Below are positions 11,802 to 58,068 of a DNA stretch of 64,000 nucleotides, in pieces (position 1 is the stretch's first letter; every line of letters begins with the position of its first letter). Under the pieces are notes generated by a model that worked only from the letters and a program-made list of their open reading frames with translations, searched no databases and was not told the origin of the DNA. The DNA is taken from the sequence record NC_052655.1. One strand, given 5' to 3'. This DNA is from Escherichia phage alia. A program made the position numbers and the translations under genes.

Positions 11802-11808
11802 TGCATAA

Positions 11809-11836: not shown

Positions 11837-11839
11837 GTC

Positions 11840-11869
11840 TTGACAAAGAGTTGTTTTTCGTGATAAAAT
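11840..11869 (+). promoter_or_regulatory. sigma70-like promoter candidate with extended -10
   Basis: TTGACA 11840-11845, 18-nt spacer, TG at 11861-11862, TAAAAT 11864-11869, upstream of the AAGAGG SD and ATG at 11917. Confidence 0.45.
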
Positions 11870-11916
11870 GAGTGATAAGGGAGAATGTTTCTTATCACAT
11901 TAAGAGGTAAAATTAT

Positions 11917-12627: not shown

Positions 12628-12638
12628 GGAGAAAATTT

Positions 12639-13058: not shown

Positions 13059-13074
13059 TAAAAGGAGTTTTTAA

Positions 13075-14085: not shown

Positions 14086-14087
14086 AA

Positions 14088-14825: not shown

Positions 14826-14828
14826 CAG

Positions 14829-20974: not shown

Positions 20975-20982
20975 GAGTAAAA

Positions 20983-22707
20983 ATGTCAACTACAATTACT
21001 AATTTACCGGAAACATCAAAAGTTAATGGTTCTGATTACCTAGTTTTAGACCAACCTGATAAGACCGTTAAAAGCACAGTTTCCAACTTTCTTACTAACA
21101 CTGGGGTGGTTGCTGCGGGGAGTGATACACCTAGAACATTATCCGATAGATTTGCTGATGTATTTAACGTTAAAGACTTTGGTGCAATTGGTGATGGAGT
21201 TGCTGATGATACAGCAGCAATACAGATAGCTAATGATGCAGCTACAGAAGTGGGTACTACTTTGTTCTTCCCTAAAGGGGTGTATCGTTGTACTGATGGT
21301 ATCGACAAGACTTGTGAATGGGTAGGTTCAGGTGCTGCAAAAATAGGTGCTTTTCCTCTTACGGATGATAAAGTATTTATGATACCAGGAATCAAGAACA
21401 AACTACCTGGTACTTGCTTGTTATTCACTGGTGTAGGAACAAAATCTTTCTCTACAAATAGAGAAGACGAGTTCTCTAGTGTACGCTATTGTGTGTTAAA
21501 TAAGGGAAGGAAAGGGCAAGGGTTAACACCTTTCGGTAAAGACCTAGCAATAGTGTGTGATTTTAACTATAAGAATACACTAGACGGAGAAGTTACAGAT
21601 CCTACTAATGACAACTCTGCGGATTACGATGTAGGGTTGTTAATGCACAATACAGACCTATCTGGCCCATCTAATGTAACAGTCGGGGGGTATTTCAAGG
21701 TAGCAGGTACAATGCACTTTGGGCAAGACCCTGACGGGTGTACTGTATATGAATTAAGGACTATGGGAAACATTGGCCTAGCTATAGTAGGGGATGGCAC
21801 TGGCACTAATAGTGCATTTAATATGCACGGTGGTGCTATCTTTGGAAACGACCATCACAGCCGTAACGTAGAGTCCGGTGTAGAGAAGTGGGGAAAACAT
21901 GCACTATACATAGACATCCCATCTTCTGTAGGTTCTGGTTCACGTAATGGTATCTCCTTCCATGGAACATGGCTGGCAACTAAGTTAGATGTTCCAGTAA
22001 AATATGACAGATGCGGTGCTATCCAATTCTTTGGTGTGGTGTTTGAGAATGCAACACAAACAGGTAGCCAACAAGCTGGAGGTATTAAAAAACAAATTGG
22101 AACCAGTAATACAGGTGATATAGGTTTCTTTGGGTGCAGATTTAATTCAGACCAGATACGTATTTCTGGTGCTTTATTGGATACTGCGACGGAATCGACA
22201 GTGATCGTTTCTGGAAGTAATGCTGGATATGGTGTTGAATTTTGGAAAGGAAAGGTTGGAGGGCGTTTTACAGGAAGCAAAAATCAAACAAATATTCAAC
22301 TAACGGATGATCCAACAAAAACAACTAGTGGTGTGGTTCTACGTCGTGATTCTTCTGGTAATTTTAATATCTTACATAACAATGATATTAAATTTACATG
22401 CGACGGTGGGGGGATTAAGACCCACCTATCATCAACTGTAGCTACAGTTAGTGGTGGTCAGACTAATATAACTAGAAACTTGCACAAGCTAAGTGGTGGT
22501 ACTCAAGAGTTAAACACATTGAACGGTGGAGTCGAAGGGATGCGTGTTGTTTTAGTGAGAAACACATCTGCCGACACAATTACACTAAAGAATCAAACAG
22601 GTAATTTACGCATCAATGGGGACTTTACTCTAGGAGCCTTCGACACTATAGAGCTAATTTACATAGGTGGTTATTGGAATGAAATAGGACGAGTTGACAG
22701 GGCTTAA
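20983..22707 (+). CDS. tailspike protein, pectate-lyase-like beta-helix (depolymerase candidate)
   Basis: 574 aa with AGGAG SD. Motif FNVKDFGAIGDGVADDTAAIQ is typical of pectate-lyase-3 / tailspike beta-helix domains; fibre-type N-terminal anchor motif. Confidence 0.7.
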   Translation: MSTTITNLPETSKVNGSDYLVLDQPDKTVKSTVSNFLTNTGVVAAGSDTPRTLSDRFADVFNVKDFGAIGDGVADDTAAIQIANDAATEVGTTLFFPKGVYRCTDGIDKTCEWVGSGAAKIGAFPLTDDKVFMIPGIKNKLPGTCLLFTGVGTKSFSTNREDEFSSVRYCVLNKGRKGQGLTPFGKDLAIVCDFNYKNTLDGEVTDPTNDNSADYDVGLLMHNTDLSGPSNVTVGGYFKVAGTMHFGQDPDGCTVYELRTMGNIGLAIVGDGTGTNSAFNMHGGAIFGNDHHSRNVESGVEKWGKHALYIDIPSSVGSGSRNGISFHGTWLATKLDVPVKYDRCGAIQFFGVVFENATQTGSQQAGGIKKQIGTSNTGDIGFFGCRFNSDQIRISGALLDTATESTVIVSGSNAGYGVEFWKGKVGGRFTGSKNQTNIQLTDDPTKTTSGVVLRRDSSGNFNILHNNDIKFTCDGGGIKTHLSSTVATVSGGQTNITRNLHKLSGGTQELNTLNGGVEGMRVVLVRNTSADTITLKNQTGNLRINGDFTLGAFDTIELIYIGGYWNEIGRVDRA

Positions 22708-43274: not shown

Positions 43275-43544
43275 CTAAAATGATTCGTTTGTCTCCATAA
43301 TATATTGCATTTCCAAATCTTCCATATGTTTCTTAAATTGGTAAACAATTTCCGATGGGGAAATATCTATATCAAAAAGTTCTTTTGTACCAGAATAAAA
43401 CCTAATACCATCAACAATAAGACCACCATAATAATCCCAATCACTTTCTCGTGAGAAAGGATTAGGTTCTTCATAATAGTAATCTACTTCAACAATAATA
43501 GGTTCTTTATTATCTTGTTTATACTCAAAATCAAAAGTGTTCAT
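43275..43544 (-). CDS. hypothetical protein
   Basis: 89 aa; start overlaps the upstream stop (TAATG). Confidence 0.5.
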   Translation of the reverse strand: MNTFDFEYKQDNKEPIIVEVDYYYEEPNPFSRESDWDYYGGLIVDGIRFYSGTKELFDIDISPSEIVYQFKKHMEDLEMQYIMETNESF

Positions 43545-44488
43545 TATAAATCCTCGATAAGCAGTCTGCGGGTTTCATTTAAATCATCAATATTGTAGTT
43601 ATCTCTTACATACTTAGCAAGAGCCAATCCTTTCTCAATACAAACATCAGGAGATTCGATTAAGTATTCTACAATATCTTTCCACTCTTTAACTGAATCA
43701 GCAAAGAAGATTAGATCTTTAAATTCTTCAGTATAATAGTTCTCTCGTGGCGAACAAACGAGTGGCAAACCTTTAGCACCAGCTTCAAGAATTTTTAAAT
43801 TACTTTTGGCATTATTAAAATGATTATTTACTAATGGAGCTATGGAGATTTGATGACCATCGTATGCTTCCATATAACACTCATAAGGACGAATACCTTC
43901 ATAAACACAATCTGGTTGAATATTTTCTTTAATTTGCAACCATTGAGCACTACTTAACTCTTCATGATCTCTACGAAATCCACATAAAGTTAAATCTTTA
44001 CCAAAATCAGGAAGAATTGCTAAATCATGTTTATGTGTTTCACTTCCCGCCCAAACCAGTGGACTTTTAGAATAACGGTCTTTCGTAAGAACAAACTGTC
44101 CTTCATCAAAAGGTAATCCGTTAGGCACAATATGTACATTATCATTGTATTGGCTTAATTCAACCTTTAATGCTGGAGTTGTTGTAGTTACAAGATCGCT
44201 TCTTTCAAGGAACCATTTTAGATCATCTCGGATTTGATTTTCAAATAATCCTTCAAGCATATGCCCTTCAGGAATAATTAAAGAATCATCCAGATCCATT
44301 ACCAATTTAAACCCAAGTTGTTTAAGAGCCAGGAAACCTGGCTTTCCACGTGTTGGTACTCCATTGAACACAAAAATATTATGCTTAGGATTAATGGTCA
44401 GTTTGCGTTTATATGGCAAAATGATCCTATGAAAATCACATACACTATACTTTTCATTTCCGCGTGTGTCAAGAATAATATTAGGCAT
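43544..44488 (-). CDS. glycosyltransferase (GT-B-like), paralog 1
   Basis: 314 aa; AAGGAG SD. Shares motifs PYDEGQFVLTKDR and YDGHQISIAPLVNNHFNNAKSNLKILEAGAKGLP with the adjacent paralog; the E....A.A.G.P segment resembles GT-B nucleotide-sugar-binding regions. Confidence 0.55.
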   Translation of the reverse strand: MPNIILDTRGNEKYSVCDFHRIILPYKRKLTINPKHNIFVFNGVPTRGKPGFLALKQLGFKLVMDLDDSLIIPEGHMLEGLFENQIRDDLKWFLERSDLVTTTTPALKVELSQYNDNVHIVPNGLPFDEGQFVLTKDRYSKSPLVWAGSETHKHDLAILPDFGKDLTLCGFRRDHEELSSAQWLQIKENIQPDCVYEGIRPYECYMEAYDGHQISIAPLVNNHFNNAKSNLKILEAGAKGLPLVCSPRENYYTEEFKDLIFFADSVKEWKDIVEYLIESPDVCIEKGLALAKYVRDNYNIDDLNETRRLLIEDL

Positions 44489-44499
44489 ATAACTCCTTG

Positions 44500-45474
44500 T
44501 TAAAGACTTTCAATAACTTGACGACGCAGTTCATTGGCATCTGCAAGATTATAATTAAGACGAACGTGTTCTGCAAGCATCATACCACGATCTTCTGTGT
44601 ATCTAGGGTTCCTCATTAGCTTGACAACTTCATAATGCCAAGATGCTTTAGAGTCTGCATAGATAACAGCCTTTGCATCTACCGGATTGAAGTACGGCAG
44701 CACAGGAGAACAGATAATAGGAAGACCCTTTGCACCTGCTTCCAAAATCTTCAAATTGCTTTTACAGTTGTTGAAGTCATTATCTACCAGGGGAGCAATT
44801 GCAATACTGTGACCGTCATACACAGACATATACTCACCTAAATTTTTAATAGCTGGTTTATACTGTGCATTTGGAATTTTACGTTTTATTTTAACCCACT
44901 CCGCAGTAGTTAGATACTGACTATTATTTCCAACAGGTGCAGAAGGATACACTTCATACCCTGCAATTGTCAATAGTGTATCATCAAATGTATTAGCTAC
45001 AAGAGATAAATCAGGCTCATGGCTTGCTCCTCCAGCCCAGATAATAGGTGTGTCAGAACTACGGTCTTTTGTCAAAGTAAATTGACCTTCGTCGTAAGGT
45101 AGTGCGTTTCTAATTACGACAACATTACGATTTAAATGACGAATTTTGTAAGCTAGGTATTCTGTTGTTACAGTAACAACATCTGCTAACTTAACCATCT
45201 CTACAATAGTCTTTGAATGATTAGTAAATACGCCAGCCATATAATGTTCAGGATTAAGTGAATAAAAATCATCTAAATCAACAATAATCTTAACACCTTG
45301 TGCCTTCAGGCGTTTAACCTCGTCTGCTCCACGAGAATACACTCTATTAAAAACTAAAACGTCTTTCTTAGGTTTAAACGTATTTCCAGCAAATGGCATT
45401 ACAATACGATGGTAATCACAACCACTGCCTAACTTATTATCACACTTAAGTACAGGAGTATTAGGATTTACCAT
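44500..45474 (-). CDS. glycosyltransferase (GT-B-like), paralog 2
   Basis: ATG at 45474 preceded by GAGGAGG; this start aligns with the paralog N-terminus (the track start at 45513 has no SD). Confidence 0.55.
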   Translation of the reverse strand: MVNPNTPVLKCDNKLGSGCDYHRIVMPFAGNTFKPKKDVLVFNRVYSRGADEVKRLKAQGVKIIVDLDDFYSLNPEHYMAGVFTNHSKTIVEMVKLADVVTVTTEYLAYKIRHLNRNVVVIRNALPYDEGQFTLTKDRSSDTPIIWAGGASHEPDLSLVANTFDDTLLTIAGYEVYPSAPVGNNSQYLTTAEWVKIKRKIPNAQYKPAIKNLGEYMSVYDGHSIAIAPLVDNDFNNCKSNLKILEAGAKGLPIICSPVLPYFNPVDAKAVIYADSKASWHYEVVKLMRNPRYTEDRGMMLAEHVRLNYNLADANELRRQVIESL

Positions 45475-46147
45475 ATTTTTGAGCCTCCTCATAAGAGATA
45501 AAAGTTTTACCATTGCGAAGATCCTCCAGGGATTGTTTATATTGTTCCCAGTTTACACCAATCCCCTGTTCTTTCTCTTCTTTTGACAGATTCGCAAAAG
45601 GTAAAGGATTGTCTCCAAATACATCATCAGGATGGATAAACGCCATAATTCGAATAGGACATGGCACGCCTTGAATACCTCGGTTCAAACCTGCCAGTGG
45701 AACGCGATGAATCCACTCTGCATCTTCATATCCATAACCGTGGGTGTATGAGCGGAAATAGCCAGCTTTCTCAATAACTGCACGGGAATACATACCAAAC
45801 TGGCACATACCTAGTTCCCAAATAACCACTTCCCCTTCAATACCTTTTACTTTATCTTTAAAGTATTCAGGCATACCAAAGAAATCCCAACCATTTTCCT
45901 TCGCCTGTTTTACAAAATATGTTTCCCAACCTTGAACAACAGGATAGCAATCATCATCAAAAATAAACCAGTAATCATACCCTTCATCATAAAACTTTTT
46001 CATCAGTTCATTACGAGCATATGCAACACCTTTTCGCTCCCGATCATACTGCACAACAAAAGTAGCATTAGGATCAGTCACAAGATAATCTTTAAGAGGA
46101 CGCTTACCTACAGTAATAACACCAACACCAATTTTTGTATTTTCCAA
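45461..46147 (-). CDS. glycosyltransferase (GT-A-like, DxD motif)
   Basis: 228 aa; TTG start after AAGGAG; DxD-containing FIFDDDCYP. Confidence 0.55.
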   Translation of the reverse strand: MENTKIGVGVITVGKRPLKDYLVTDPNATFVVQYDRERKGVAYARNELMKKFYDEGYDYWFIFDDDCYPVVQGWETYFVKQAKENGWDFFGMPEYFKDKVKGIEGEVVIWELGMCQFGMYSRAVIEKAGYFRSYTHGYGYEDAEWIHRVPLAGLNRGIQGVPCPIRIMAFIHPDDVFGDNPLPFANLSKEEKEQGIGVNWEQYKQSLEDLRNGKTFISYEEAQKYGKS

Positions 46148-46156
46148 AATAACTCC

Positions 46157-46720
46157 TTAAATAATTTTATTCATGTCTTGACAATGTAAAAGGTGTGAAA
46201 TAGCTTTTCTAGGATCATCATTACCTAAACGGTATGTGTGAAATAAATATAACCCACGTAGTAAACCTAGCCTTTTATTGTTAGCGTGCAATGCTTTAGA
46301 GAAAATTATATCAAACTGTATTGATCTTTCCTCAAAAGGGATTTCATTCCACAGACTCTTACGAAAGAGAAGAAAGAATCCTGCTAAGATAGCATCTGTA
46401 GGTACTTCCTCTATTGAGTTTCCCCATTCTAGATGTGCTCTTTTTGCAATCTCAATGTGGTGTAATATATTTGGATCTTCACTTCTTTCATTATTAAATA
46501 ATTGATATGTTGATCCCAATCTATTACAAGATGCACCAAGAACATCAAAATCAGGATTTGAACGGACTATTGATTCCAGCCAAGCAGGTTGTTCTGGAAG
46601 AAGAAACATTGTATCAATGTCTCTTAGGCAAATCCAACTATCTTCTGGTAAAACACTTATTGTGTCATTGATACCTTTTCCAATATCTCCAGAAAGATAG
46701 GGAGTTATGTGAAATATCAT
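46157..46720 (-). CDS. putative glycosyltransferase (GT-A-like)
   Basis: 187 aa; GGAGGGAG SD; LRDIDTMF DxD-like motif. Weaker assignment. Confidence 0.4.
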   Translation of the reverse strand: MIFHITPYLSGDIGKGINDTISVLPEDSWICLRDIDTMFLLPEQPAWLESIVRSNPDFDVLGASCNRLGSTYQLFNNERSEDPNILHHIEIAKRAHLEWGNSIEEVPTDAILAGFFLLFRKSLWNEIPFEERSIQFDIIFSKALHANNKRLGLLRGLYLFHTYRLGNDDPRKAISHLLHCQDMNKII

Positions 46721-47468: not shown

Positions 47469-47978
47469 TTAGCGATAGAATTGATGTTCTTTGTAGCGGT
47501 ACACTAGAACCATATCTTTTTCCCAGTGTGCTCTTATTGTAGATTTTTTAAAGTATAATGCTCCTTTTGTAATATCTAATGCAATTCGTAATTCTGGAAA
47601 ATGCGTATCGAGATAAAGTAGACGTTCTGCTATAGCCTTAGCTTCCTTCCACTTATCACGTTCCATAACGTTGAATGTCTTTGTGTAAGAGAATTGTCCT
47701 TTTTGAAACAAAACTTCTTTTATAGTATCAGGGAAATATGAATCTCTAGCCCTATTCAATACTACATTACCAACAGCAGACATACCGCGCTTTCCTTGAT
47801 TACGACTTTCTGCATAGATTGCACAAGCTAATAGATTTTCTTTACTATCACGCTTTGTACACTTGTGAACTACTTTAGCAGTTTTTACGTTTGCAGCTTC
47901 GGCTTGCGCCACGACAGGTGTAAATGTAAAAGCAGTTAAGGATAGTAACGCAATTGCGACAAAGGTTTTTATTGACAA
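47469..47978 (-). CDS. secreted cell-wall hydrolase (SleB-like), endolysin candidate with signal peptide
   Basis: TTG start 5 nt after AGGAGG. N-terminal signal peptide (MSIKTFVAIALLSLTAFTFTPVVAQA); motif CAIYAESRNQGKRGMSAVGNVVLNR resembles the SleB-type cell-wall hydrolase family. Confidence 0.6.
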   Translation of the reverse strand: MSIKTFVAIALLSLTAFTFTPVVAQAEAANVKTAKVVHKCTKRDSKENLLACAIYAESRNQGKRGMSAVGNVVLNRARDSYFPDTIKEVLFQKGQFSYTKTFNVMERDKWKEAKAIAERLLYLDTHFPELRIALDITKGALYFKKSTIRAHWEKDMVLVYRYKEHQFYR

Positions 47979-48674: not shown

Positions 48675-48702
48675 TGTTTTCTCCTCTTCTATTTAAAATA
48701 TG

Positions 48703-48718
48703 CGCCCCGAAGGGCGCT
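48703..48718 (-). terminator. intrinsic terminator after terD-like gene (UUCG loop on minus strand)
   Basis: GCGCCC-CGAA-GGGCGC on the plus strand; on the minus strand it is followed by TATTTTAAAT. Confidence 0.55.
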
Positions 48719-48726
48719 ATGATTTA

Positions 48727-49323
48727 TTACTCGAACCAATCGTCGCCAGCGCCAAACGCTTTAACTACATCATAAATGTCAAGTCCAGCTTTACCTACAC
48801 CATATGCTTTCAGTTTCCATTCGTTATCTTCCCGCACCAGGGAGGCAACGTGGCAAATGGTATTACCTGCAAGTTCTGGAGCCAAGAAGTCAAAGTCCAG
48901 CAGTTCAACGTTACGTTCATCATCGAAGATTTTAAGGAAACCTTCGGTAGCGTGACCAAGGCGTTTCTTACCCGTTTCGTCATCAATAGTAATTACGAAT
49001 GCAATTTCCTGTGCTTCAGCAGAGATATTATCCAGTGTAACATCAATCTGCTCCATTTGCCCTACACCGTCACGAACATCTTCACCTGCAAAAGTAGAAC
49101 GTTCAGGATCAAATTTCTGTGCGTAGCATACCAGGTGGCGAGGAGACAACAGTTCCGGCAGACCAGATGCATTGTGTCGGCAAATCAGAGCACTAACATC
49201 CAGATCCAGTTTTTCGTTAGATTTCCAAGAGAATTCCAGACGAATGCGTTTCAGTGCTGGTGCAATCTTTTTCAGAGAAACTTTTTCGCTAGAACCTTTT
49301 TTCAGGGAAATTTTCTGAGTCAT
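48727..49323 (-). CDS. terD: TerD-family protein
   Basis: 198 aa; AAGGAGG SD. Hallmarks KISLKKGSSEKVSLKK, LDLDVSALI, IAFVITIDD and NEWKLKAYGVGKAGL align with TerD as I recall it. Confidence 0.8.
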   Translation of the reverse strand: MTQKISLKKGSSEKVSLKKIAPALKRIRLEFSWKSNEKLDLDVSALICRHNASGLPELLSPRHLVCYAQKFDPERSTFAGEDVRDGVGQMEQIDVTLDNISAEAQEIAFVITIDDETGKKRLGHATEGFLKIFDDERNVELLDFDFLAPELAGNTICHVASLVREDNEWKLKAYGVGKAGLDIYDVVKAFGAGDDWFE

Positions 49324-49360
49324 AATTTATTACCTCCTTTGTTGTTAATTTACGTTGTCT

Positions 49361-49388
49361 ATTTTACTAATCTTTTCTACAAAGTCAA
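49361..49388 (-). promoter_or_regulatory. sigma70-like promoter candidate (minus strand) upstream of terD-like gene
   Basis: On the minus strand: TTGACT (plus 49383-49388), 16-nt spacer, TAAAAT (plus 49361-49366). Confidence 0.3.
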
Positions 49389-49395
49389 GCGTTTT

Positions 49396-50190
49396 TTACG
49401 CTTTTGCTCCAAATTTTTTAACCCACTCGCCAAACTCTTCAGATAGCAGTTTATCGTAAAGTTCTTCGTCAGACAAGGACAAATCTGCAATACCGATAAA
49501 ATCAACATTATCGTATTCTTTTGCCAAGTCTTTCAGGAATTTAAAGTTTGCATTACCTACACCGACCATAAACCAGTAAACAGGAGTGTTGCGGTGTTTG
49601 TTCAGCAAACTACGTACTGCTGAAGTATCCATGTTCTCCCCGTCAGTTTGGAAGAAAATCATTGCAGGAGTACGATCAACTTGTGCATCAGTATCTACAA
49701 CCTGTTCTATAACAGTACGTGTAACTTCTACAAGTTCTTTTTTACCAGTTAGTTTAGCAAGGAAACCCTTAGCCGGAACTTCTTCATACTCAACGACTTG
49801 GCGTGTAATATTTTTCATAGGTACACTACCGAAGTATGTATCATAGATCTCTTGCATTACTGGAGCATAAGCAGTACCACCATTGATGCAAACATTAGAC
49901 ATACAAGAGCCGACATAATCATCATATACATCAGCCGTTGCAGGAGGCAGTTCAAAAGAAGAACTATTGAAAGCCCACATGTCAATCTGTGCATTATCAT
50001 CAAACTTCATACCAAACGGCAGCAGCTTACCTACAAAATCACTAACAGTGCCATCACGATACAGCTCACACATACTACCCGAAATATCTAAGGCGCTTCC
50101 GACACGAAGAACAACATCGTTAATCTTTTTCTTACGCAGAGATACGGTAAGAGTTTCTTGACGTTTTTTAAGACTGATTTTATTGGACAT
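49396..50190 (-). CDS. von Willebrand factor A (vWA) domain protein (TerY-like)
   Basis: 264 aa; AAGGAGAAA SD. MIDAS-type motif DISGSM and downstream FFQTDGE; N-terminus has a TerD-like ISLKK motif. Confidence 0.65.
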   Translation of the reverse strand: MSNKISLKKRQETLTVSLRKKKINDVVLRVGSALDISGSMCELYRDGTVSDFVGKLLPFGMKFDDNAQIDMWAFNSSSFELPPATADVYDDYVGSCMSNVCINGGTAYAPVMQEIYDTYFGSVPMKNITRQVVEYEEVPAKGFLAKLTGKKELVEVTRTVIEQVVDTDAQVDRTPAMIFFQTDGENMDTSAVRSLLNKHRNTPVYWFMVGVGNANFKFLKDLAKEYDNVDFIGIADLSLSDEELYDKLLSEEFGEWVKKFGAKA

Positions 50191-50191
50191 A

Positions 50192-50461
50192 TTATTTCTC
50201 CTTTCTGAGTGTAATGTTAGTAACTTCTAAATCCACTTCTACCATTTCTGTATCATATGAAATACAGCTAAGTTGACCTCTTTGTGAACCGTTCAGACAC
50301 ATTGCTTGGTTTGTATTAACTTTAATAAACACTAAGTTTCTGAACGTATCTAAACCAGAATCTTGATACGCAACATAATATACAAATGTATCACCTGCAT
50401 CAAGTTCTCCAAAACATTTAGGTTCATCTGATTCGTCGTCTTTGATATTAAATTTAAGCAC
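50192..50461 (-). CDS. hypothetical protein
   Basis: 89 aa; GTG start after AAGGAGAAG; stop is 1 nt before the vWA start. Confidence 0.5.
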   Translation of the reverse strand: MLKFNIKDDESDEPKCFGELDAGDTFVYYVAYQDSGLDTFRNLVFIKVNTNQAMCLNGSQRGQLSCISYDTEMVEVDLEVTNITLRKEK

Positions 50462-51017
50462 TATCTTCTCCTTTACCTGCTCTCAAGCCTAAATAGAAAG
50501 CCTCTCTGGTGATCTTTTGCAACTCGTTTAAAGAGATAGTTACAACTAAATCATCTTCAATTTCTAGCTTTGAGTCTTCTTCTGTCTCAATGCAAGTATT
50601 ATGCACTTTGTGGTAAGGATTGTCAACACGTTTAAATTTATTATTTTCAGTGCTGAAGAAGCAATCTGGATCTTCTTCCCCATCACCCCAACCCTGGTTA
50701 GGATCTTCTTCAGATCTTTCTGTTGGGATCTCGCCTGTAAAGTGCTCTTCTAATACCAGAGCAATCCCATCTCCAAGATCGGAAGAGAACATCAAATTAC
50801 AAACTTCTTCCCAAGGCATAGACCACTTAAATCTTTTACGATTGCCATGTTTATCTTCTTCGTTAGAGAAAACACTACCATAGCTATCATAATTCCCATA
50901 CATCTCTTCGATAACCTTACCACCTTTCAAAAGAAATAGGTAGCAAGGAGAGCCATCGAAAGAGGTAGAAAGAGCAGCATTACCAGACTCTTTGCACAAG
51001 AAACTAAAACATCCCAT
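50454..51017 (-). CDS. hypothetical acidic protein
   Basis: 187 aa ORF coupled to its neighbours. Confidence 0.5.
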   Translation of the reverse strand: MGCFSFLCKESGNAALSTSFDGSPCYLFLLKGGKVIEEMYGNYDSYGSVFSNEEDKHGNRKRFKWSMPWEEVCNLMFSSDLGDGIALVLEEHFTGEIPTERSEEDPNQGWGDGEEDPDCFFSTENNKFKRVDNPYHKVHNTCIETEEDSKLEIEDDLVVTISLNELQKITREAFYLGLRAGKGEDSA

Positions 51018-51217
51018 TATACACCAGCCTTAAGATCAATTATAGCCAAAGTTGTTTCAGAGTGTGTTTGCTCGTCTACAGGTGCAGTCATATGATAATA
51101 CAAAAAGTCTTCGGCATCATACCAATCTGACTCTTGACCTTGTTTCCAACCATCAATGAAAGCATCTTCCATAATGGTTTGTAACTCTTCACGAGTTAAG
51201 TGAATATCTTTACTCAT
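51017..51217 (-). CDS. hypothetical protein
   Basis: 66 aa ORF coupled to its neighbours. Confidence 0.45.
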   Translation of the reverse strand: MSKDIHLTREELQTIMEDAFIDGWKQGQESDWYDAEDFLYYHMTAPVDEQTHSETTLAIIDLKAGV

Positions 51218-51450
51218 TACACATTCTCCTCTTTTACCAATTCCATCGTTGAACTATCAAAACCATCTTTAGAAGAATAGGTATAGACAGAACGTAGTTC
51301 TCGCAGGACAGTGAATACATTAGGATCATCTAACCAAGCATCCTGGAGGAGAACATAACGATCTTCATTGTCGTACTGGACGGCAATCATAGAACCAGAC
51401 AGTTTGTAAATTTTAATATTCATAATATATTTCTCCTTAAAGTAGACCAC
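51217..51450 (-). CDS. hypothetical protein
   Basis: 77 aa ORF coupled to its neighbours. Confidence 0.45.
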   Translation of the reverse strand: MVYFKEKYIMNIKIYKLSGSMIAVQYDNEDRYVLLQDAWLDDPNVFTVLRELRSVYTYSSKDGFDSSTMELVKEENV

Positions 51451-52540
51451 GTTTAACAGTTTGAATCATACCATCTTCAAGAGATTGTACTTCTTGGATG
51501 TAATCAATACGAGCAGCACGGGCTTCAGTATTGATTCGGTTAGTTTCTTCTAACATTTTAACTAAGTTTTCTTGATCGCGACGTAATGTTTCAATATCCA
51601 ATACTTGACGATTAGCAAGTTGTGTAGCTTCAATTTGGTTTTGTGCAGCCAGATCACTACCCATTGCAATAGCAGCATTAAATTCGTTCAGTACATTGTT
51701 CTGTGTATCTGCTGCTTTCTTCTGGCGTAGACTTTCAATATACATAGAAAAGTTTGCAGAGTAAGCAGGGATAACATTATTCACAATATTACGGGCTGAT
51801 CGCATCAAACTTGCAGATACTTTCTGCATACTTTGTACACGTGGCCCCATCTGAACACACAGTAAACGCAAGGCTTTCAGGTCTGCAATACGAATTTCAA
51901 GCAGATCCATAGTATCACGAGTACGTTGACGCTCTTCTACTTCATTTTCAGGTAGTGTATTAAGGCGAACTTCTTCTTTTTCATAAGTAGCTGTTAGAAG
52001 CTCTATATCCCTGTTTAAGCTAAGAGCATATTTTGCAATAGCCTCTTCTAAACGTTGCAGATATCGTAAAGAATCTTCTTCTTTTTTCAAGTCTGTTTGG
52101 AGTGTCTTTACCAAACCTTCAATACGATTATTGATGGTGTCAAATTCTCCAAACAAATCTTCTTTCATACCTAAAACTTTCTTAAATAGTTTACCTAAAC
52201 CTTTAGATTGTTTAATAGAATTAGGATCAAGTTGCTTTGCTTGCTTAATAAGTGCGGTTAAACGTTCACTCATTTCATCTCCCTGGGATGAACGCTGGTG
52301 TTTAAGCACTTCGGCATTAAGGTTACGAAGAGTAAGTCCTGCATCAGCACCAACTTGTTCAATCTCTTCACGAGACATTGGAGGCAGCATTTGTACAGGT
52401 CGTGCAACAGCAGGGGCATATACAGGGCTTGCATCCATAGCACTTGGAGCAAACAAAGACTTACTTTTTTCTGTTGTTGCCGTGAATACACTCATTTCAG
52501 ACGGTTTGCTTTTTACGGCACTGATAAAAGGACTGGACAT
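51437..52540 (-). CDS. TelA-like toxic-anion-resistance family protein (tentative)
   Basis: 367 aa, largely coiled-coil/helical; GGAGGAAA SD. Size, composition and adjacency to terD/terC-like genes suggest TelA/KlaA; no unique motif verified. Confidence 0.4.
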   Translation of the reverse strand: MSSPFISAVKSKPSEMSVFTATTEKSKSLFAPSAMDASPVYAPAVARPVQMLPPMSREEIEQVGADAGLTLRNLNAEVLKHQRSSQGDEMSERLTALIKQAKQLDPNSIKQSKGLGKLFKKVLGMKEDLFGEFDTINNRIEGLVKTLQTDLKKEEDSLRYLQRLEEAIAKYALSLNRDIELLTATYEKEEVRLNTLPENEVEERQRTRDTMDLLEIRIADLKALRLLCVQMGPRVQSMQKVSASLMRSARNIVNNVIPAYSANFSMYIESLRQKKAADTQNNVLNEFNAAIAMGSDLAAQNQIEATQLANRQVLDIETLRRDQENLVKMLEETNRINTEARAARIDYIQEVQSLEDGMIQTVKRGLL

Positions 52541-52608
52541 TCAATTTCCTCCATATTCTTTAGTAGATGGTGATACCTCTGTACCACCATCATAACACAA
52601 ATTAAGTA

Positions 52609-53460
52609 TTAAACAAACATATCTAAATAATTTGTAGTAATAAATGCTCCATCTGCTTCCAGATTAACATAACCAGTAGCATTAGTGGTTAAGAAATCCA
52701 GATCGAAGGACTCTTTAACACCCCGTACCTCAACACGAGAGATATCGAATACAGGTAGTGTAACAGCCTCTTCGTGCAATACCGTACCTTTGTAGGTTGC
52801 CTTAATGATAAACTTGATATTACCCGTTCCAGCATCATACAAAACACTTTCAAACCCTTTGAGAGTATACTTATCACCAGAAGTGAAGTGCAAAGTTGCT
52901 TTGTTTACAGTACGTTTCTTACGAGGAGTTCCTTTCACACGTTTATGATCACTACGTTTTTTGTACTTAGGAATGAATACAAACGATACACTATCAAGAA
53001 AGGTATCAACATCAAGGATTTTAATATCCTCTGTTGCAGCAAATTTTGAAGTCGTTGCATCAAAATGCTTTTCCCTGCGATCATACATAAAGATATCAAA
53101 ACGATCTTCTAAATCAAACAAATTATGTATCTTAATTTCAGAATGCTTGCACATTGCAGCAACCTTAAACTCTTCAAAACGTGGGTGTTCTACCAGTTCT
53201 TCAAGTTTTACACCAAAGACAGTATATGGCTTCGAAGTTTTTTCTGGCGTTGGCATTACAGAAGCATAATCACCGATTGCGCTTTTAAAGCAAAATTGTT
53301 CTTGACCTGTATTTTTACCAACGAATTTACAATATTCGTCATCGTGCATACTTTCTTTGGTAGTACCAACAAACTCAAAACCATCTTTATTCTTCTCAAG
53401 AATTTCTTGATTAAAGATCCAACCTTCCAGGCGATACACTTTACCAACTTCTAGTTTCAT
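52609..53460 (-). CDS. hypothetical protein
   Basis: 283 aa with AAGGAGAAA SD. Confidence 0.55.
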   Translation of the reverse strand: MKLEVGKVYRLEGWIFNQEILEKNKDGFEFVGTTKESMHDDEYCKFVGKNTGQEQFCFKSAIGDYASVMPTPEKTSKPYTVFGVKLEELVEHPRFEEFKVAAMCKHSEIKIHNLFDLEDRFDIFMYDRREKHFDATTSKFAATEDIKILDVDTFLDSVSFVFIPKYKKRSDHKRVKGTPRKKRTVNKATLHFTSGDKYTLKGFESVLYDAGTGNIKFIIKATYKGTVLHEEAVTLPVFDISRVEVRGVKESFDLDFLTTNATGYVNLEADGAFITTNYLDMFV

Positions 53461-53495
53461 CTGTTTCTCCTTCTTATTTAATCTGTATTAAATTA

Positions 53496-54086
53496 TTAAC
53501 GACGACGTGAGCTACTAAAACTACGTTTCGACGAAGAATAACTTTTCGAAGACTTACTATAAGAGCTAATAGGACTTGAGTAAGACTTACGAGCAGAGTA
53601 ATCACTATTCACTTTTGTTGTTGATGGGCGTGAATACGTTTGTACACTTTGCTGCTTAATTGTGTTTTGTTTAGTGGTTGTATATGTATTTACAGGTTTA
53701 TCATAAAAACTACGCTTTTGTGTTGTATATGATTTACTGTTAGTTGTAGGAGCAGCATTGTTATTAATAATGGTTGTGTTGCTACCACCATCTCTATAAC
53801 CACCACCGCCACTATTACCACTCAACATATGACCAAGAAGCATACCTGTAGCAAAGTCACCTACACCAGAAGAACCACTACCACCTCCTTGCACAACAAC
53901 TGTGGAAGGTTGTGCAGGTGCTGCTTGAACAACTTGAGGTGCAGGTTGATTTACATATTGTTCATCTACCATCTGATTTGGTGTTTGTTGGTAACGTTGA
54001 TTTTGTACATTTTCAGAATCATCACAACCTACCAGCAATGCACTACCTAAAACAACTGCAACAATAAAAGATTTAATGTTTTTCAT
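53496..54086 (-). CDS. lipoprotein with Ser/Thr/Tyr-rich low-complexity C-terminus
   Basis: ATG at 54086 preceded by GAGAGGG. Lipobox LLVGC after a hydrophobic signal sequence; Gly-rich tract; long S/T/K/Y-rich tail. Confidence 0.55.
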   Translation of the reverse strand: MKNIKSFIVAVVLGSALLVGCDDSENVQNQRYQQTPNQMVDEQYVNQPAPQVVQAAPAQPSTVVVQGGGSGSSGVGDFATGMLLGHMLSGNSGGGGYRDGGSNTTIINNNAAPTTNSKSYTTQKRSFYDKPVNTYTTTKQNTIKQQSVQTYSRPSTTKVNSDYSARKSYSSPISSYSKSSKSYSSSKRSFSSSRRR

Positions 54087-54279
54087 TTGTAACCCTCTCA
54101 TTTAAAGTCTCAACACAATTTTTAAAATCCCTAGAGAAACAATACATCTGTTCTCCGTTCCTGTTGATAGTAATTGTATGGTTATCAATATATGTTGTCA
54201 AGATAAAAATCAAACAAAATAACCCTAAAGCAAAACAAATATTTTCAAACAGAATCCAAAGAACACGTAAAACCACCAT
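54073..54279 (-). CDS. small hydrophobic membrane protein
   Basis: 68 aa; hydrophobic stretch VLRVLWILFENICFALGLFCLIFIL; overlaps the lipoprotein start by 14 nt. Confidence 0.4.
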   Translation of the reverse strand: MVVLRVLWILFENICFALGLFCLIFILTTYIDNHTITINRNGEQMYCFSRDFKNCVETLNERVTNEKH

Positions 54280-54293
54280 CAGATCACCTCAAC

Positions 54294-54309
54294 AAAGCCC
54301 CCGAAGGGG
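54294..54309 (-). terminator. hairpin after terC-like gene (UUCG loop on minus strand)
   Basis: AGCCCC-CGAA-GGGGCT on the plus strand, immediately downstream of the terC-like stop on the minus strand; U-tract weak. Confidence 0.4.
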
Positions 54310-54318
54310 CTTAATGAA

Positions 54319-55296
54319 TTAAGCAACAGTCTGGTCTTCTTTTTCAGGGAAGATTAAACTTGCAACAACACCCAACCCAAGAGTACCTAACACAATATAC
54401 ATACTGATCGTCGGATCAATGTGTGCTGGCAGGAAACTCATTTTTGCGTGCAGAGTTTCTGCAAACGGGTGATACATCAGTTTTACACCCACAAATACCA
54501 GGACTACGATAACTGCTTTCTCCAGATGAACCAAATACTTCAGTGCAACACTAAGAACAAAGAACAGAGCACGTAAACCTAAGATTGCACAGAGCATCGA
54601 AGAGAACACCAGCAGAGGTTCTTGTGTCACTGCAATTACTGCTGGAACAGAGTCTACTGCAAAGATTACGTCAACCATTTCCATTACAAACACACAAACC
54701 AGAGCCGGAGTTGCTACACGAACACCATTCTTGATTGTGAAGAACTTCTCACCATCCATCTGATCAGATACAGGGAACAGCTTACGAACAATGCGAGTAG
54801 CCCAGTGTTTAGAGTAATCAACTTCTGCATCATTATCTCCAGCGAATACCATTTTAGCCGCACAGAAAAGGATGACAGCACCGAAGAAGATATTAACATA
54901 CCAGCCCAAACTCAACAAGTAAGTGCCTACTGCTACAAACACACCTCGGAAGACAATCGCACCTGCAATACCCCAAAGTAGAATTTTGTGCTGCAAGTGT
55001 GTGCTTTTAATACCAAAACTTGCGAAGACTGCCACAAATACTACTAAGTTATCTACAGAAAGAGATTTCTCCAACACATACCCACTCAAGAACAAGCTCG
55101 CAAAATCAGCACCGTGTTGGAAGTATACAAAACCATAGTAGGCTAATGATACCCCAATCCAGAAAATTGACCAACCAACTGCCGATTTAAATGAAATCTC
55201 TTTGTTTTCTCTGTGTCCAAAGAAATCAATACAAATCGACAAGACTAAAATACCCACTAAAACAACCACATCAATAATTGGGAAACCCAGTTGCAT
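54319..55296 (-). CDS. terC: TerC-family integral membrane protein
   Basis: 325 aa multi-pass membrane protein with the TerC hallmark LEKSLSVDNL; AAAGAGGAG SD. Confidence 0.8.
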   Translation of the reverse strand: MQLGFPIIDVVVLVGILVLSICIDFFGHRENKEISFKSAVGWSIFWIGVSLAYYGFVYFQHGADFASLFLSGYVLEKSLSVDNLVVFVAVFASFGIKSTHLQHKILLWGIAGAIVFRGVFVAVGTYLLSLGWYVNIFFGAVILFCAAKMVFAGDNDAEVDYSKHWATRIVRKLFPVSDQMDGEKFFTIKNGVRVATPALVCVFVMEMVDVIFAVDSVPAVIAVTQEPLLVFSSMLCAILGLRALFFVLSVALKYLVHLEKAVIVVLVFVGVKLMYHPFAETLHAKMSFLPAHIDPTISMYIVLGTLGLGVVASLIFPEKEDQTVA

Positions 55297-55314: not shown

Positions 55315-55373
55315 GCGGAGGACAATCCTCCGCTCTATGTCGTATACTATAAACTGTTTTTAAAGAAAGTCAA
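55315..55373 (-). promoter_or_regulatory. promoter candidate plus 5'-UTR hairpin upstream of terC-like gene
   Basis: On the minus strand: TTGACT (plus 55368-55373), 16-nt spacer, TATAGT (plus 55346-55351), then hairpin GCGGAGG-ATTGT-CCTCCGC (plus 55315-55333) just upstream of the SD. Confidence 0.35.
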
Positions 55374-55852: not shown

Positions 55853-56569
55853 TTATTTCAGTTTGTAAACAATTACATTTAAACCTTTGTTCACTAGAGT
55901 TTCTTCGATCATAAGTTTTACAATATTCCAAGAACCTCCAGCCAAACCACAACCAAGCATTGGTAAACCTACAATTTTACCGCCTGAAGATACAACATCG
56001 TCTCCCATACTATCTAACGCATTGTAGATAGCTTCATAATTCAGGTCACGCTTACCTTCCTCACGACGACTATAACCATATTGTCCATATAAATTATAAA
56101 TTGTCAAATTGTTTTCTGTATATTTGGTAAACGTACCTAATTTTTTATAATCACCACGTTTAGTGGCACAATCTGCTTTAAACGCACCAGGCCACTTGCT
56201 TTTAATTTTTGGTGCAATACCACTACCCATAGTGCAAAAACAGTTACAGCAGTGTGCTATAGCGTCTATATCGCCTCTCTCGGCTGCTGCTAAAAGATCA
56301 CCGTATACCTCAATGATACCTGCCGGATAACTTGTTACAATTTCATCTTCCCAATACATTTTCTCTACACCACCGATCAGTGCAAAGTTTTGTGTAATGC
56401 GATCATCAATATAGTTAAGACCTGAAACATACACAGCGTATTCATCCTGTGCTGTAATACCTTGCACACGAATTCTTAAGACACCATCTTTATCTGTTGC
56501 TACACGCCCAAAATCTTTTTCTGTAATATTGGTGATAGGATCTCCGAAAGTCATTACTTTATTAGACAT
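55853..56569 (-). CDS. macro-domain protein (ADP-ribose binding / processing)
   Basis: ATG at 56569 preceded by AAAGGGGA and overlapping the upstream stop (ATGTCTAA). Motif DAIAHCCNCFCTMGSGIAPKI fits the macro-domain H..N.......G.G.A pattern. The track start at 56686 would overlap the upstream gene by 125 nt. Confidence 0.6.
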   Translation of the reverse strand: MSNKVMTFGDPITNITEKDFGRVATDKDGVLRIRVQGITAQDEYAVYVSGLNYIDDRITQNFALIGGVEKMYWEDEIVTSYPAGIIEVYGDLLAAAERGDIDAIAHCCNCFCTMGSGIAPKIKSKWPGAFKADCATKRGDYKKLGTFTKYTENNLTIYNLYGQYGYSRREEGKRDLNYEAIYNALDSMGDDVVSSGGKIVGLPMLGCGLAGGSWNIVKLMIEETLVNKGLNVIVYKLK

Positions 56570-57419
56570 AATAATCCCCTTTAACATTAGGTTTGTTGAT
56601 AATGTTGCTTTCAAAAAATTGACGTAGGAAATCAAAGTTCTCTTTGTATTTTTCAATGTTATTGTAACCTTCTGCAAGGCAACCAAAGAACAGTTGTTCT
56701 ACATAATACAAAGGAAGTTGTGAAAGTGCAATTTTAAAATCAACTTCGCTTTGACTCATTAGATACTTAATAGGACGAACCAAACATTTAGCATCAGCTT
56801 CTTGCTTAATCATTTTAATAAAAGCTGCCAGATTATTGATATAGTTGAAGTTAAGTGCAGCTTCGGTGTTGGCTTCTGTACCTTCATACTTTGCAAAGTA
56901 CAGGAAAAACGTATCGTTTTCAACACCTTCTTTGTCTAAAATTTCAATAAGTTTTTCTTCGTGTGTTCCTGTAATATTAACATCATCAATGAAAATCAGA
57001 GTTTTATTACCCCAGAAATCACGATTGATAGAGAAAGTGTCACCATCGATCAAAGCCTTACGATCTTCTTTGCTAAGAAATCCATAATCATTGATATAGC
57101 TCACTTTACGATGAACGATATCCCACTCCACTGCTTTACCCCCTTTGATAGAGATTAGGTAGTTGAGGTGATCTACAAAATGTTCAGATAACACTGTAGC
57201 TGCATTTTTCACATAGTTATATGGAGATGGAATAACAACAAAACTTTCATTTACCAGTCGTTCTTCATACTTAGAAAAGAAACTTTCAGCCAGAATGCGT
57301 CCCATTCTTTTTGCTGCCTGGTTACTACCAAACTTCAGTTTGGAATAATCTGCAATGTTAAATTTTGCTTCCTTCAGGTTAGTAAAAGTATTAGCAAAAT
57401 GTTGAATTTGATTACGCAT
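56562..57419 (-). CDS. type I phosphoribosyltransferase-fold protein
   Basis: 285 aa; AAGAGGAA SD. PRPP-binding-loop-like motif KTLIFIDDVNITGTHEEK. Substrate unknown. Confidence 0.45.
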   Translation of the reverse strand: MRNQIQHFANTFTNLKEAKFNIADYSKLKFGSNQAAKRMGRILAESFFSKYEERLVNESFVVIPSPYNYVKNAATVLSEHFVDHLNYLISIKGGKAVEWDIVHRKVSYINDYGFLSKEDRKALIDGDTFSINRDFWGNKTLIFIDDVNITGTHEEKLIEILDKEGVENDTFFLYFAKYEGTEANTEAALNFNYINNLAAFIKMIKQEADAKCLVRPIKYLMSQSEVDFKIALSQLPLYYVEQLFFGCLAEGYNNIEKYKENFDFLRQFFESNIINKPNVKGDYYV

Positions 57420-58068
57420 TAATAAGTTCCTCTTTTTTAAGTTTAGCCAACAAGTCTTCTGGATTAATAATATGACAGAACTTCATCCCTATGTCAACAG
57501 CTTTCCCATCATAGATCAAACTATCTCCAACGTGTAAAATCTCCTCTGGTGCGAGATCAAACGTTACCATTTCATCAAAAGAGAGTTTAAAAAACCTGGG
57601 ATCTGGTTTACACAAGCAAAACTCATCAGAAAAATGCATAAAATCGAATGGTAATTTTGTCAAGCCAGAATATACAGCTAAGAAACTACCAGGTACAAAA
57701 TTGGTATTGCTTTTAATACTCAAAGAATAGGTTGAACTTAGCTCTTCCAACTTCTTGCAAAGTTCAGGGTTTAATATTGGAGGATGTTTTATAAACATTG
57801 CTAAACAGTCTCTTTTTAACCCATCTACTTTATCAAGATCAATGTTCAAATGAGCAGAAAGTGTTTCCCAAGCATTTCTAGATGTTCCACAAATGCCTTT
57901 TTCTGCTTTTAAATCCAGGAGAGTTTTTACCTCTTTATATACGGTAGCTGCTTCTGCCTCAGAACAAGAGGCATACTCGGCAATAACCTTGTTGCGCTCT
58001 TCTGCATACAAAGGATTAGCAGTAATAAGAGTATTCCATACATCAAAAGAAATATGCTTAACAGTCAT
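57412..58068 (-). CDS. HAD-superfamily hydrolase (phosphatase candidate)
   Basis: ATG at 58068 preceded by GGAGGA. HAD motif I FDVWNTL (DxD-type nucleophile) and motif IV HVGDSLIYDG. Its stop overlaps the PRTase start by 8 nt. Confidence 0.6.
   Translation of the reverse strand: MTVKHISFDVWNTLITANPLYAEERNKVIAEYASCSEAEAATVYKEVKTLLDLKAEKGICGTSRNAWETLSAHLNIDLDKVDGLKRDCLAMFIKHPPILNPELCKKLEELSSTYSLSIKSNTNFVPGSFLAVYSGLTKLPFDFMHFSDEFCLCKPDPRFFKLSFDEMVTFDLAPEEILHVGDSLIYDGKAVDIGMKFCHIINPEDLLAKLKKEELINA

Follow-up and report, generated by a model that had tools for sequence, protein, structure and literature searches.

A conserved Ter gene unit in the replication arm of Escherichia phage alia: composition, transcription layout and possible function

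Identity and setting of the Ter block

The question of what a virulent phage gains from carrying Ter-family proteins is raised by a 6570-base block of eleven genes on the minus strand of Escherichia phage alia (accession number NC_052655.1), which occupies positions 48727-55296 of the 64,000-nucleotide stretch analysed here and hereafter called the window. How Ter proteins act has long been unsettled, ever since the tellurite, phage and colicin phenotypes of plasmid ter genes were described, hence the interest of a minimal phage set consisting of TerC, TelA, a vWA protein and TerD (hereafter the quartet). Judged from its sequence signals, the block is a single self-contained minus-strand transcription unit, and its products are tentatively proposed, with a confidence that falls a little short of evenly balanced, to form an early inner-membrane complex which would protect the infected cell either by superinfection exclusion or by envelope or ion protection.

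Over its full length the block shares 97.8-98.4% nucleotide identity with 53 deposited genomes of Justusliebigvirus (Stephanstirmvirinae; phi92-like phages), and about 65 further phage records match it at 60-90% identity. According to the annotation of phage Paula it is equivalent, gene for gene, to gp172-gp182 of phage phi92, and these numbers are used below. Several of the genes are labelled “putative stress protein”, “putative stress/toxic anion resistance protein” or “putative membrane bound tellurium resistance protein” in the Paula record, while the labels in other GenBank records are TerC, TerD family, VWA or TelA-like, and in many records all eleven genes are hypothetical. Three of the phi92 proteins (gp172, gp173 and gp178) were listed as tellurium/tellurite resistance proteins in a metagenome paper of 2015. 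Since phi92 is annotated in this way and phage Ter clusters have already been discussed as possible anti-viral or exclusion modules (PMC7824862, PMC8386662, PMC9796965), the block is a known and annotated locus of phi92-like phages and not the new discovery suggested by the original prediction, which had been made from the letters of the sequence only. The opportunity was thus already visible in the literature, and the window adds detail to it, namely the boundaries of the unit, a degenerate loop in TerD, two conserved envelope partners and the distinction of those embedded open reading frames (ORFs) that can be ignored.

The genes around the block code for a DNA polymerase, a primase/helicase, a UvrD-like helicase and a class III ribonucleotide reductase, which places it in the replication and nucleotide-metabolism arm of a phage that is virulent and bears out the lytic replication setting first described for it. 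All the ORFs reported at that time are present at their coordinates on the minus strand, to which all the window coordinates below refer. The uncharacterised ORFs were however counted as five and actually number seven (gp174, gp175, gp176, gp177, gp179, gp180 and gp181), the overlooked one being gp181, with a length of 68 amino acids (aa), at 54073-54279.

The four Ter proteins

Pfam assignments were accepted only for scores above the gathering thresholds, and all four Ter proteins lie far above them, with nearly the whole profile covered in each case. The profile searches with Pfam and NCBIfam thereby support the TerD, vWA, TelA and TerC assignments of the original prediction. The proteins were compared across three genera, represented by the window (Justusliebigvirus), phAPEC8 (Phapecoctavirus) and Citrobacter phage Tr1, and the identities in this and the following sections are those to phAPEC8 and Tr1 unless another reference is named.

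TerC (phi92 gp182, 54319-55296) is predicted to be a multi-pass inner-membrane protein, with hydrophobic segments across residues 1-318 in a Kyte-Doolittle scan. It matches Pfam family PF03741 with an E-value of 1.2e-38 (133.1 bits versus a cutoff of 27.8) and belongs to the TerC/Alx subfamily according to the NCBIfam model TIGR03718, with 323.6 bits versus a curated cutoff of 246.4; the identity is 71-76%. TelA (phi92 gp178, 51437-52540), a predicted soluble helical protein of the toxic-anion-resistance family PF05816, matches positions 13-330 of the 332 in the profile (5e-35, 121.6 bits versus a cutoff of 30), contains no hydrophobic segment, shows 71-79% identity and has homologues in 244 phage records. 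A sequence search for solved relatives of TelA and of the vWA protein found none.

The vWA protein (phi92 gp173, 49396-50190) matches the vWA-TerF-like family PF10138 (5.1e-39, 134.9 bits versus a cutoff of 29.4), while the generic VWA profile PF00092 gives 22.8 bits, which is below its cutoff of 23.8, and no PADLOC model, TerY-P included, is matched. By these profile scores it is to be classed with the TerF-C-terminal type and not clearly with TerY. Its metal ion-dependent adhesion site (MIDAS) is intact, with residues D35-x-S37-x-S39, T106 and D183 invariant in five phage orthologues, and the protein shows 67-68% identity. It had originally been described as a vWA protein with a TerD-like N-terminus, of which the first part stands by virtue of PF10138 and the second does not, as the likeness is limited to a 20-residue motif (11 of 20 residues identical, pairwise E-value 0.087). 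No Pfam TerD match was found in the protein, so that TerF proper, in which a TerD domain is fused to vWA, is not represented by it.

TerD (phi92 gp172, 48727-49323) consists of a single TerD domain (PF02342; E-value 4.1e-28, 98.6 bits versus a cutoff of 25.3, positions 3-178 of the 187 in the profile) and matches the solved structures PDB 2KXT at 8e-15 and 3IBZ at 8e-13, with about 30% identity to the solved Klebsiella TerD. With 81-84% identity it is the best-conserved protein of the block. In 2KXT and 3IBZ, as well as in the TerD proteins of Caulobacter phage CcrBL9 and Pseudomonas phage phiPsa374, the alignment contains the canonical acidic loop GDNxTGEG(D/E)GDDE, which, judging from the alignment to 2KXT and 3IBZ, would be the site of the calcium ligands reported for Klebsiella TerD. 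In contrast, the window, phAPEC8 and Tr1 have GEDVRDGVGQM--E in place of this loop, with the DxD motif DLD retained in the window TerD. The protein is therefore probably a member of the TerD fold with weak metal binding or none.

Conservation of the block and other phage Ter clusters

The order of genes is the same in all three genera: HAD, PRTase_3, Macro, gp184, the promoter, TerC, gp181, the lipoprotein gene, a gp179-like gene, TelA, the small ORFs, vWA and TerD. The DNA polymerase of Phapecoctavirus-type records shows 77-78% identity, similar to that of the Ter proteins. Counted at 60% identity or more, 130 phage records have TelA and 132 have the DNA polymerase, which makes the block near-core in Stephanstirmvirinae. 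The four-gene set is thus retained as strictly as the DNA polymerase throughout the subfamily, including the BASEL phages that grow on K-12, and this offers a tractable system for the study of TerC, TelA, vWA and TerD function. Within Justusliebigvirus, phages phi92, Paula, VEcB and JohannJBalmer possess the same locus with an identical gene order and nothing substantially different. Four GenBank records deposited as “Campylobacter phage” with the host C. jejuni (MG065639, MG065645, MG065656 and MG065689) are also 97.8% identical to the window across the whole block, and this host label is probably wrong or due to contamination.

The quartet recurs in at least two other phage groups, so that the clustering first noted in the window extends to related phages and beyond them. 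In CcrBL9 the order is TelA-vWA-TerC-TerD in a row, with a TerC of the DUF475 type, and in phiPsa374 (Otagovirus) it is TelA-x-vWA-TerC-TerD, with a short TerC of 223 aa. Both differ from the window, where a TerC/Alx-type gene comes first, followed at a distance by TelA and then by vWA and TerD, and where TerD lacks the canonical loop found in both of them; the identity of the window Ter proteins to those of other phage clusters is only 22-31%. Klebsiella phage phiKp34 and Acinetobacter phage ME3 are further virulent phages with Ter clusters made up of the same families as in the window.

Comparison with bacterial Ter systems

Compared to the plasmid and chromosomal operons terZABCDEF (IncHI2 R478, E. 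coli O157, Klebsiella), TerC of the phage is 47% identical (over 99% of its length to the IncHI2-type plasmid protein), TerD about 30%, and the vWA protein 25-27% (over 96% of its length to plasmid TerF/VWA proteins). Such uneven distances rule out a recent wholesale capture of the quartet from an enterobacterial ter operon. The bacterial operons encode several TerD paralogues (TerZ, A, D, E, F) versus the single TerD-domain protein of the phage, and the phage block further differs from them in lacking TerB, in the addition of TelA, in the degenerate TerD loop, in its host-type promoters and in belonging to a virulent phage. A different likeness is offered by the envelope-stress operon yceCDEFGH of Bacillus subtilis, which combines TerD paralogues, TerC (MeeF/YceF) and the TelA-family protein YceH in one operon, as the phage block does. 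Unlike the phage block, it has no vWA gene, contains three TerD paralogues and belongs to a chromosomal stress regulon.

Plasmid ter operons have been connected with resistance to tellurite and to pore-forming colicins as well as with phage inhibition (PMC7824862, PMC8386662, PMC9796965). The similarity of the phage TerC to the plasmid protein over its full length could be understood as counter-defence by mimicry, with the phage copies, notably TerD and TerC, poisoning or replacing the host ter complex in strains carrying terZABCDEF; a TerD whose acidic loop is degenerate and which is yet the best-conserved protein of the block would be in line with this, as would the inhibition of phages by plasmid ter operons, as far as it is relayed by later papers (Whelan 1995, as cited in PMC8386662, PMC9796965). 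Nevertheless, the vWA and TerD proteins are only 25-30% identical to their plasmid counterparts, and the quartets of other phages have the canonical TerD loop. The block is moreover kept in about 98% of the subfamily even though the ter operon is, to our knowledge, absent from K-12 laboratory hosts and from many E. coli strains, and mimicry is considered very unlikely on these grounds.

The phage unit is unlikely to serve tellurite resistance as such. That the block is cargo of benefit to the host, making carrier or pseudolysogenic cells resistant to tellurite or xenobiotics, is what the tellurite and toxic-anion resistance labels in GenBank would imply, and possible xenobiotic resistance during pseudolysogeny was mentioned by Iyer et al. 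in 2021 (PMC7824862). We give this explanation hardly any credence, considering that the phage is virulent and carries the block in its replication arm, that TerB, TerZ, TerA and TerE are missing, and that the authors describing phiPsa374 considered it unlikely that an equivalent incomplete set gives tellurium resistance (PMC9796965).

Envelope proteins encoded after TerC

Two small genes directly follow TerC in all three genera. The first, gp181 (54073-54279), codes for a predicted single-pass membrane protein of 68 aa with a hydrophobic segment at residues 1-33, which occurs at the same position in phAPEC8 and Tr1 with 49-62% identity and has only a PHROG match. The second, gp180 (53496-54086), codes for a predicted inner-membrane lipoprotein with the lipobox LLVG-C and Asp at position +2, a low-complexity body and a tail rich in Ser, Lys and Arg. 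Asp or Glu after the lipoprotein Cys is an inner-membrane retention signal of the Lol pathway in E. coli. Although the identity of gp180 is only 35-38%, comparison of the translations from the window, phAPEC8 and Tr1 shows that each of them has Asp or Glu right after the lipobox Cys, contains the motif GVG(D/E)FAxGMLLGH and ends in RRR. As possible lineage-specific partners of TerC, gp181 and gp180 are the strongest candidates.

The transcription unit and the TerC leader

The unit is laid out on the minus strand as follows: promoter, hairpin in the 5′ untranslated region (5′-UTR), TerC, gp181, gp180, gp179, TelA, four small ORFs, vWA, a second promoter, TerD and terminator. A promoter candidate and a 5′-UTR hairpin had been ascribed to TerC from the beginning, and both were found. 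The putative σ70-like promoter, TTGACT-16-TATAGT at 55346-55373, was recognized by a scan (10 of 12 positions) together with reading of the sequence, and its first base is located one base past the stop codon of gp183. Its -35 TTGAC is unchanged in the alignment with phAPEC8 and Tr1, and the phAPEC8 record independently carries the annotation of a host-dependent promoter at this position.

Between the promoter and the ribosome-binding site of TerC lies the hairpin GCGGAGGA-UUG-UCCUCCGC (55315-55333), with a minimum free energy of -15 kcal/mol (z = -4.73; none of 200 shuffled sequences folds as well), and this ribosome-binding site, which is a strong one, and the start codon of TerC follow on its 3′ side. 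GC-rich hairpins with another sequence are found in the same place upstream of TerC in phAPEC8 and Tr1, and double changes occur in five of the eight pairs, as judged from only three compared sequences. The second σ70-like promoter candidate, TTGACT-16-TAAAAT (49361-49388, scan match of 10 out of 12), lies in the 72-nt spacer between vWA and TerD; it is kept in Tr1 as TTGACT...TAGAAT and absent in phAPEC8, whose TerD follows other ORFs. The starts of transcription predicted from the two promoter candidates lie near 55339 and 49354. A terminator scan found the hairpin GCGCCC-UUCG-GGGCGC followed by AUAUUUU at 48702-48717, 10 nt past the stop codon of TerD, and GC-rich hairpins of differing sequence are located 3′ of TerD in Tr1, phAPEC8 and PD06, another Justusliebigvirus. 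Taken together, the promoter, the hairpin and the terminator define the block as a discrete unit, the limits of which nearly match those first assigned to it.

No relevant Rfam family was detected between 47 and 60 kb at E-values up to 1, the sole match being a chance miRNA, and hence the TerC leader does not contain a yybP-ykoY Mn2+ riboswitch. Such a riboswitch is typical of the Alx, YkoY and YjbE leaders, and plasmid TerC does not require one. The result of the Rfam scan, in which no Mn riboswitch or other metal-responsive element was seen upstream of TerC, speaks against a function in metal logistics, with TerC acting as an exporter of Mn2+ or other divalent cations or as a Sec-linked metal chaperone, regulated by the vWA MIDAS, TerD and TelA, in order to tune the metal content of the cytoplasm for phage enzymes or to metalate phage proteins that are exported, and not to exclude competitors. 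The same applies to the presence of a TerC homologue, Alx, in E. coli K-12. Such a function would nonetheless agree with the score of TerC above the curated cutoff of the TerC/Alx metal-homeostasis subfamily and with the role of TerC-family proteins, MeeF (YceF) of B. subtilis among them (PMC10550928), in moving or exporting Mn2+ and metalating exported enzymes (PMC10550928, PMC10197570, PMC13274385). The lipoprotein gp180 and a cell-wall hydrolase with a putative signal peptide (47469-47978) are encoded nearby, and genes of the class III ribonucleotide reductase are located in the same arm. As no metal-dependent exported phage enzyme was identified, and as this function would leave it unexplained why TelA, vWA and TerD travel together with TerC in three phage groups, it seems rather doubtful, while deserving some weight.

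Genes upstream of TerC

Three genes at 55853-58068 are probably associated with the Ter block. They code for an HAD hydrolase (57412-58068; Pfam HAD, E-value 1.1e-5), a PRTase_3 protein (PF15610, 56562-57419; 9.1e-42), whose gene overlaps that of the HAD hydrolase, and the macrodomain protein gp185 (55853-56569; Macro, 2.1e-7). The HAD and PRTase_3 genes lie 0.6-2.8 kb upstream of TerC, and phAPEC8 and Tr1 have HAD, PRTase and Macro in the same order. PRTase_3 is the ComF-like phosphoribosyltransferase (PRTase) family defined from Ter neighbourhoods, and the phosphoribosyl pyrophosphate loop DDVxITG is conserved and intact in the phage protein. In the HAD hydrolase, motif I is FDVWNTL, where the second, catalytic Asp is exchanged for Trp, and it does not vary among the four orthologues compared, from phages of E. 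coli to those of Rhizobium, which makes ordinary phosphatase chemistry uncertain and points to an atypical one.

A module for a nucleoside-like metabolite, consisting of PRTases, HAD, ATP-grasp and TIM-barrel lyase proteins, was reportedly linked with bacterial Ter systems by Anantharaman, Iyer and Aravind in 2012. PRTase_3 and HAD are likewise found directly upstream of the phage TerC, whereas motif I of the phage HAD contains DVW rather than DxD, unlike that of the metabolite module, and the scanned flanking ORFs gave no Pfam match to an ATP-grasp amidoligase or a TIM-barrel C-C lyase. It is conceivable that the entire region of 48.7-58.1 kb is one signal-coupled Ter system, in which PRTase_3 and HAD would make a nucleoside-like molecule, TerD or vWA would sense it, and TerC and TelA would change the membrane. 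The strong PF15610 match next to an overlapping HAD gene and the order HAD-PRTase-Macro-TerC kept in three genera argue for such a system, and so do the PRTase_3 homologues in jumbo phages of Brevundimonas and Caulobacter, groups which also have TelA homologues, and the description of Ter, PRTase and HAD in phage ME3 by Iyer et al. in 2021 (PMC7824862). The two modules are, however, separate transcription units with the TerC promoter between them, TerB, the proposed ligand-binding link, is absent, and the Trp in HAD motif I adds its own doubt. Moreover, Rhizobium phage RHph_TM30 carries the HAD-PRTase_3 pair among genes of nucleotide metabolism and away from Ter genes, phiPsa374 has the quartet but lacks the pair, and no pair of this kind lies within 10 kb of the CcrBL9 quartet. 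A signal-coupled system is for these reasons judged unlikely, and the link between the pair and the Ter genes can be described as facultative.

The macrodomain protein gp185 contains an 88-residue lineage-specific N-terminal extension, matches DarG at 5.5e-13 (1.1e-13 with the PADLOC model) and has T4-type tk.4 as a homologue; its family, with 2,971 phage records, is annotated as Poa1p-like in other phages. Tk.4 of T4 has been named AdfM, an anti-DarTG2 factor (bioRxiv 10.1101/2025.11.20.689424), and related phage macrodomains are Poa1p-like phosphatases of ADP-ribose-1′′-phosphate (ADPR-1′′-phosphate) in extended NARP1 operons (bioRxiv 10.64898/2026.01.28.702374). By homology, gp185 is probably a counter-defence enzyme, for which ADP-ribosylated DNA and ADPR-1′′-phosphate are the candidate substrates. 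In phiPsa374, a 35% identical macrodomain protein is encoded beside Adps- and Namat-like genes (NARP1-AP-like) at 3-8 kb from the quartet (10565-15135 of the compared stretch), and in CcrBL9 the genes for NadM and NAMPT lie about 9 kb from it (19661-20996 of the compared stretch), while a local tblastn search for homologues of the NAD+ reconstitution (NARP) genes Adps, Namat and NadM found none within the 64-kb window. These genes suggest, as an association only, that the Ter quartet tends to lie among conflict-related accessory genes.

A bolder version of the protective function, which we regard as improbable, would make the quartet together with gp181 and gp180 a counter-defence device that keeps the inner membrane energised against depolarising abortive-infection effectors and pore-forming toxins, as part of an anti-defence island in which ribose-nucleotide enzymes (PRTase_3, the atypical HAD and the macrodomain protein) lie beside it and would counter, by repair or detoxification, an immune chemistry based on ADP-ribose or derived from NAD. 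Should it prove true, Ter proteins would have their first mechanistic function, and the old phenotypes of phage inhibition and colicin resistance would be explained.

Proposed function of the Ter unit

Takeover, counter-defence and superinfection exclusion, the functions first suggested for the set, are conjectures, and the reading preferred here, tentative as it is, remains that of an early inner-membrane complex protecting the infected cell. The unit would be transcribed by the host RNA polymerase early in infection, and its products would assemble at the inner membrane as a Ter-type complex altering the handling of divalent cations and the state of the envelope. The infected cell would thereby become refractory to DNA injection by superinfecting phages, to pore-forming colicins and to membrane-depolarising abortive-infection effectors, and the upstream PRTase_3-HAD pair may supply a nucleoside-like ligand, as has been proposed for bacterial Ter systems. 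Such protection would correspond to the inhibition of phages and the resistance to colicins that E. coli gains from plasmid ter operons, and an action of phage Ter systems against superinfecting phages was proposed by Iyer et al. in 2021 (PMC7824862). In the phage itself, support comes from the family identity of the four proteins, the layout of the unit, its near-core retention, the recurrence of the quartet, the membrane setting of TerC, gp181 and gp180, the intact MIDAS and the conflict-related neighbours.

Several observations weigh against this protective function. Among the scanned ORFs at 43.3-59.6 kb there is no TerB and one TerD-domain ORF, which leaves the phage set without TerB, TerZ, TerA and TerE and means that the full phenotypes of the plasmid operons are not simply transferable to it. 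The degenerate loop of TerD weakens a calcium-sensing model, none of the defence models of PADLOC-DB 2.0 is matched by TerD, vWA, TelA or TerC, and the link to the PRTase-HAD pair, which occurs away from Ter genes in RHph_TM30 and is missing in phiPsa374, is facultative. As for the timing, early expression is deduced from promoter-like sequences alone, and such matches in the region are not above chance, with 39 found versus 35.4 expected, so the support for both promoters comes from their position and conservation and not from the scan. Furthermore, literature searches on the topic found no functional experiment on any phage Ter cluster.

The small ORFs between TerC and TerD

The embedded ORFs had been pointed out as the best place in the window to look for new biology and were treated as parts of the Ter system. 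All seven of them match no Pfam family and only PHROG families whose function is unknown, and none is present in the Ter clusters of the other phage lineages, phiPsa374 and CcrBL9. Most of the small ones are thus likely to be lineage-specific passengers and not Ter components.

The gp175 gene (50454-51017) codes for a phage-family domain of about 137 aa, followed by a lineage-specific C-terminal helix. The domain has 297 homologues at 50-65% identity and the family comprises 312 clusters (at 50% identity) in a library of 1.84 billion proteins, with the invariant signature MGCFSF..C8..GNYDSYG..W65..W69..DPNQGWG. The AlphaFold2 model has a predicted local distance difference test score (pLDDT) of 86; a fold search of PDB and BFVD found no neighbour except its own orthologue, and there is no Pfam match. 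In the contexts examined elsewhere, members of the family lie next to genes for replication or other early genes, in phage-like contigs that are unrelated, and in no case next to Ter genes. The gene is absent in Tr1, and a clean deletion has removed it from Justusliebigvirus PD06, which is collinear apart from this (gap at 7928-8013 of the compared PD06 stretch). It is a passenger gene of a separate family and not a Ter component, and as a small, phage-wide and strongly conserved family with a confident model it is the by-product most worth a separate look.

The neighbouring gp176 (66 aa, 51017-51217) matches only PHROG 14200, and its residues 5-31 resemble residues 159-185 of gp175 (ELQxI..AFxxGxxxG; pairwise E-value 0.002), the two copies of the helix motif being located at 51125-51205 and 50454-50540, respectively. 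A similar C-terminal tail is present in several distant gp175 homologues, and the common motif may be a docking or oligomerisation helix. The remaining two ORFs of this stretch are gp174 (89 aa, 50192-50461; PHROG 11278 match only), which has two paralogous copies in phAPEC8 and none in Tr1, and gp177 (68 aa, 51217-51423, with the start as in the annotation of phage Paula; PHROG 26823 match only), which has a weak homologue in Tr1, none having been found in phAPEC8.

On the other side of TelA, gp179 (283 aa, 52609-53460) is a lineage-restricted orphan apparently composed of an N-terminal module of about 70 aa, a basic linker and a C-terminal β domain. A search of 5.8 billion proteins brought up only eight homologues, even when a profile was used as the query, and all of them are confined to Stephanstirmvirinae; gp055 of phAPEC8 and a 283-aa protein of Tr1 share only the C-terminal domain with it. 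The AlphaFold2 model has a pLDDT of 54 overall and about 78 for residues 181-283, and a fold search gave no match, the low confidence of the model making this search uninformative. In phAPEC8 (gp056, 12702-13274 of the compared stretch) and Tr1 (10802-11383 of the compared stretch), although not in the window, an extra gene for a SprT-like protein with an HExxH motif (HEIAHA) is located between the gp179-like gene and TelA, which identifies the interval between TerC and TelA as an insertion hotspot. Judging from these comparisons, the TerC-TelA and TelA-vWA stretches are both variable insertion zones.

Genes downstream of the unit

Four consecutive genes at 43544-46720 on the minus strand, beside the primase/helicase gene, have homologues in phAPEC8 which are annotated as glycosyltransferases, with DNA, LPS or a virion component as the candidate target, but their own Pfam matches are weak. 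No Pfam match was obtained for gp166, gp165 remained below the threshold of a TET-associated TAGT family (24.1 bits versus 27.5), and gp163, the only one of the four above a threshold, matched Glyco_trans_1_2 with 26.8 bits versus a cutoff of 25. Closer to the block, about 700 bases downstream of the Ter terminator, the cell-wall hydrolase gene already mentioned codes for a Hydrolase_2/SleB-like protein (E-value 6.5e-20) with an N-terminal segment resembling a signal peptide, and its counterpart in phAPEC8 is annotated as an endolysin.

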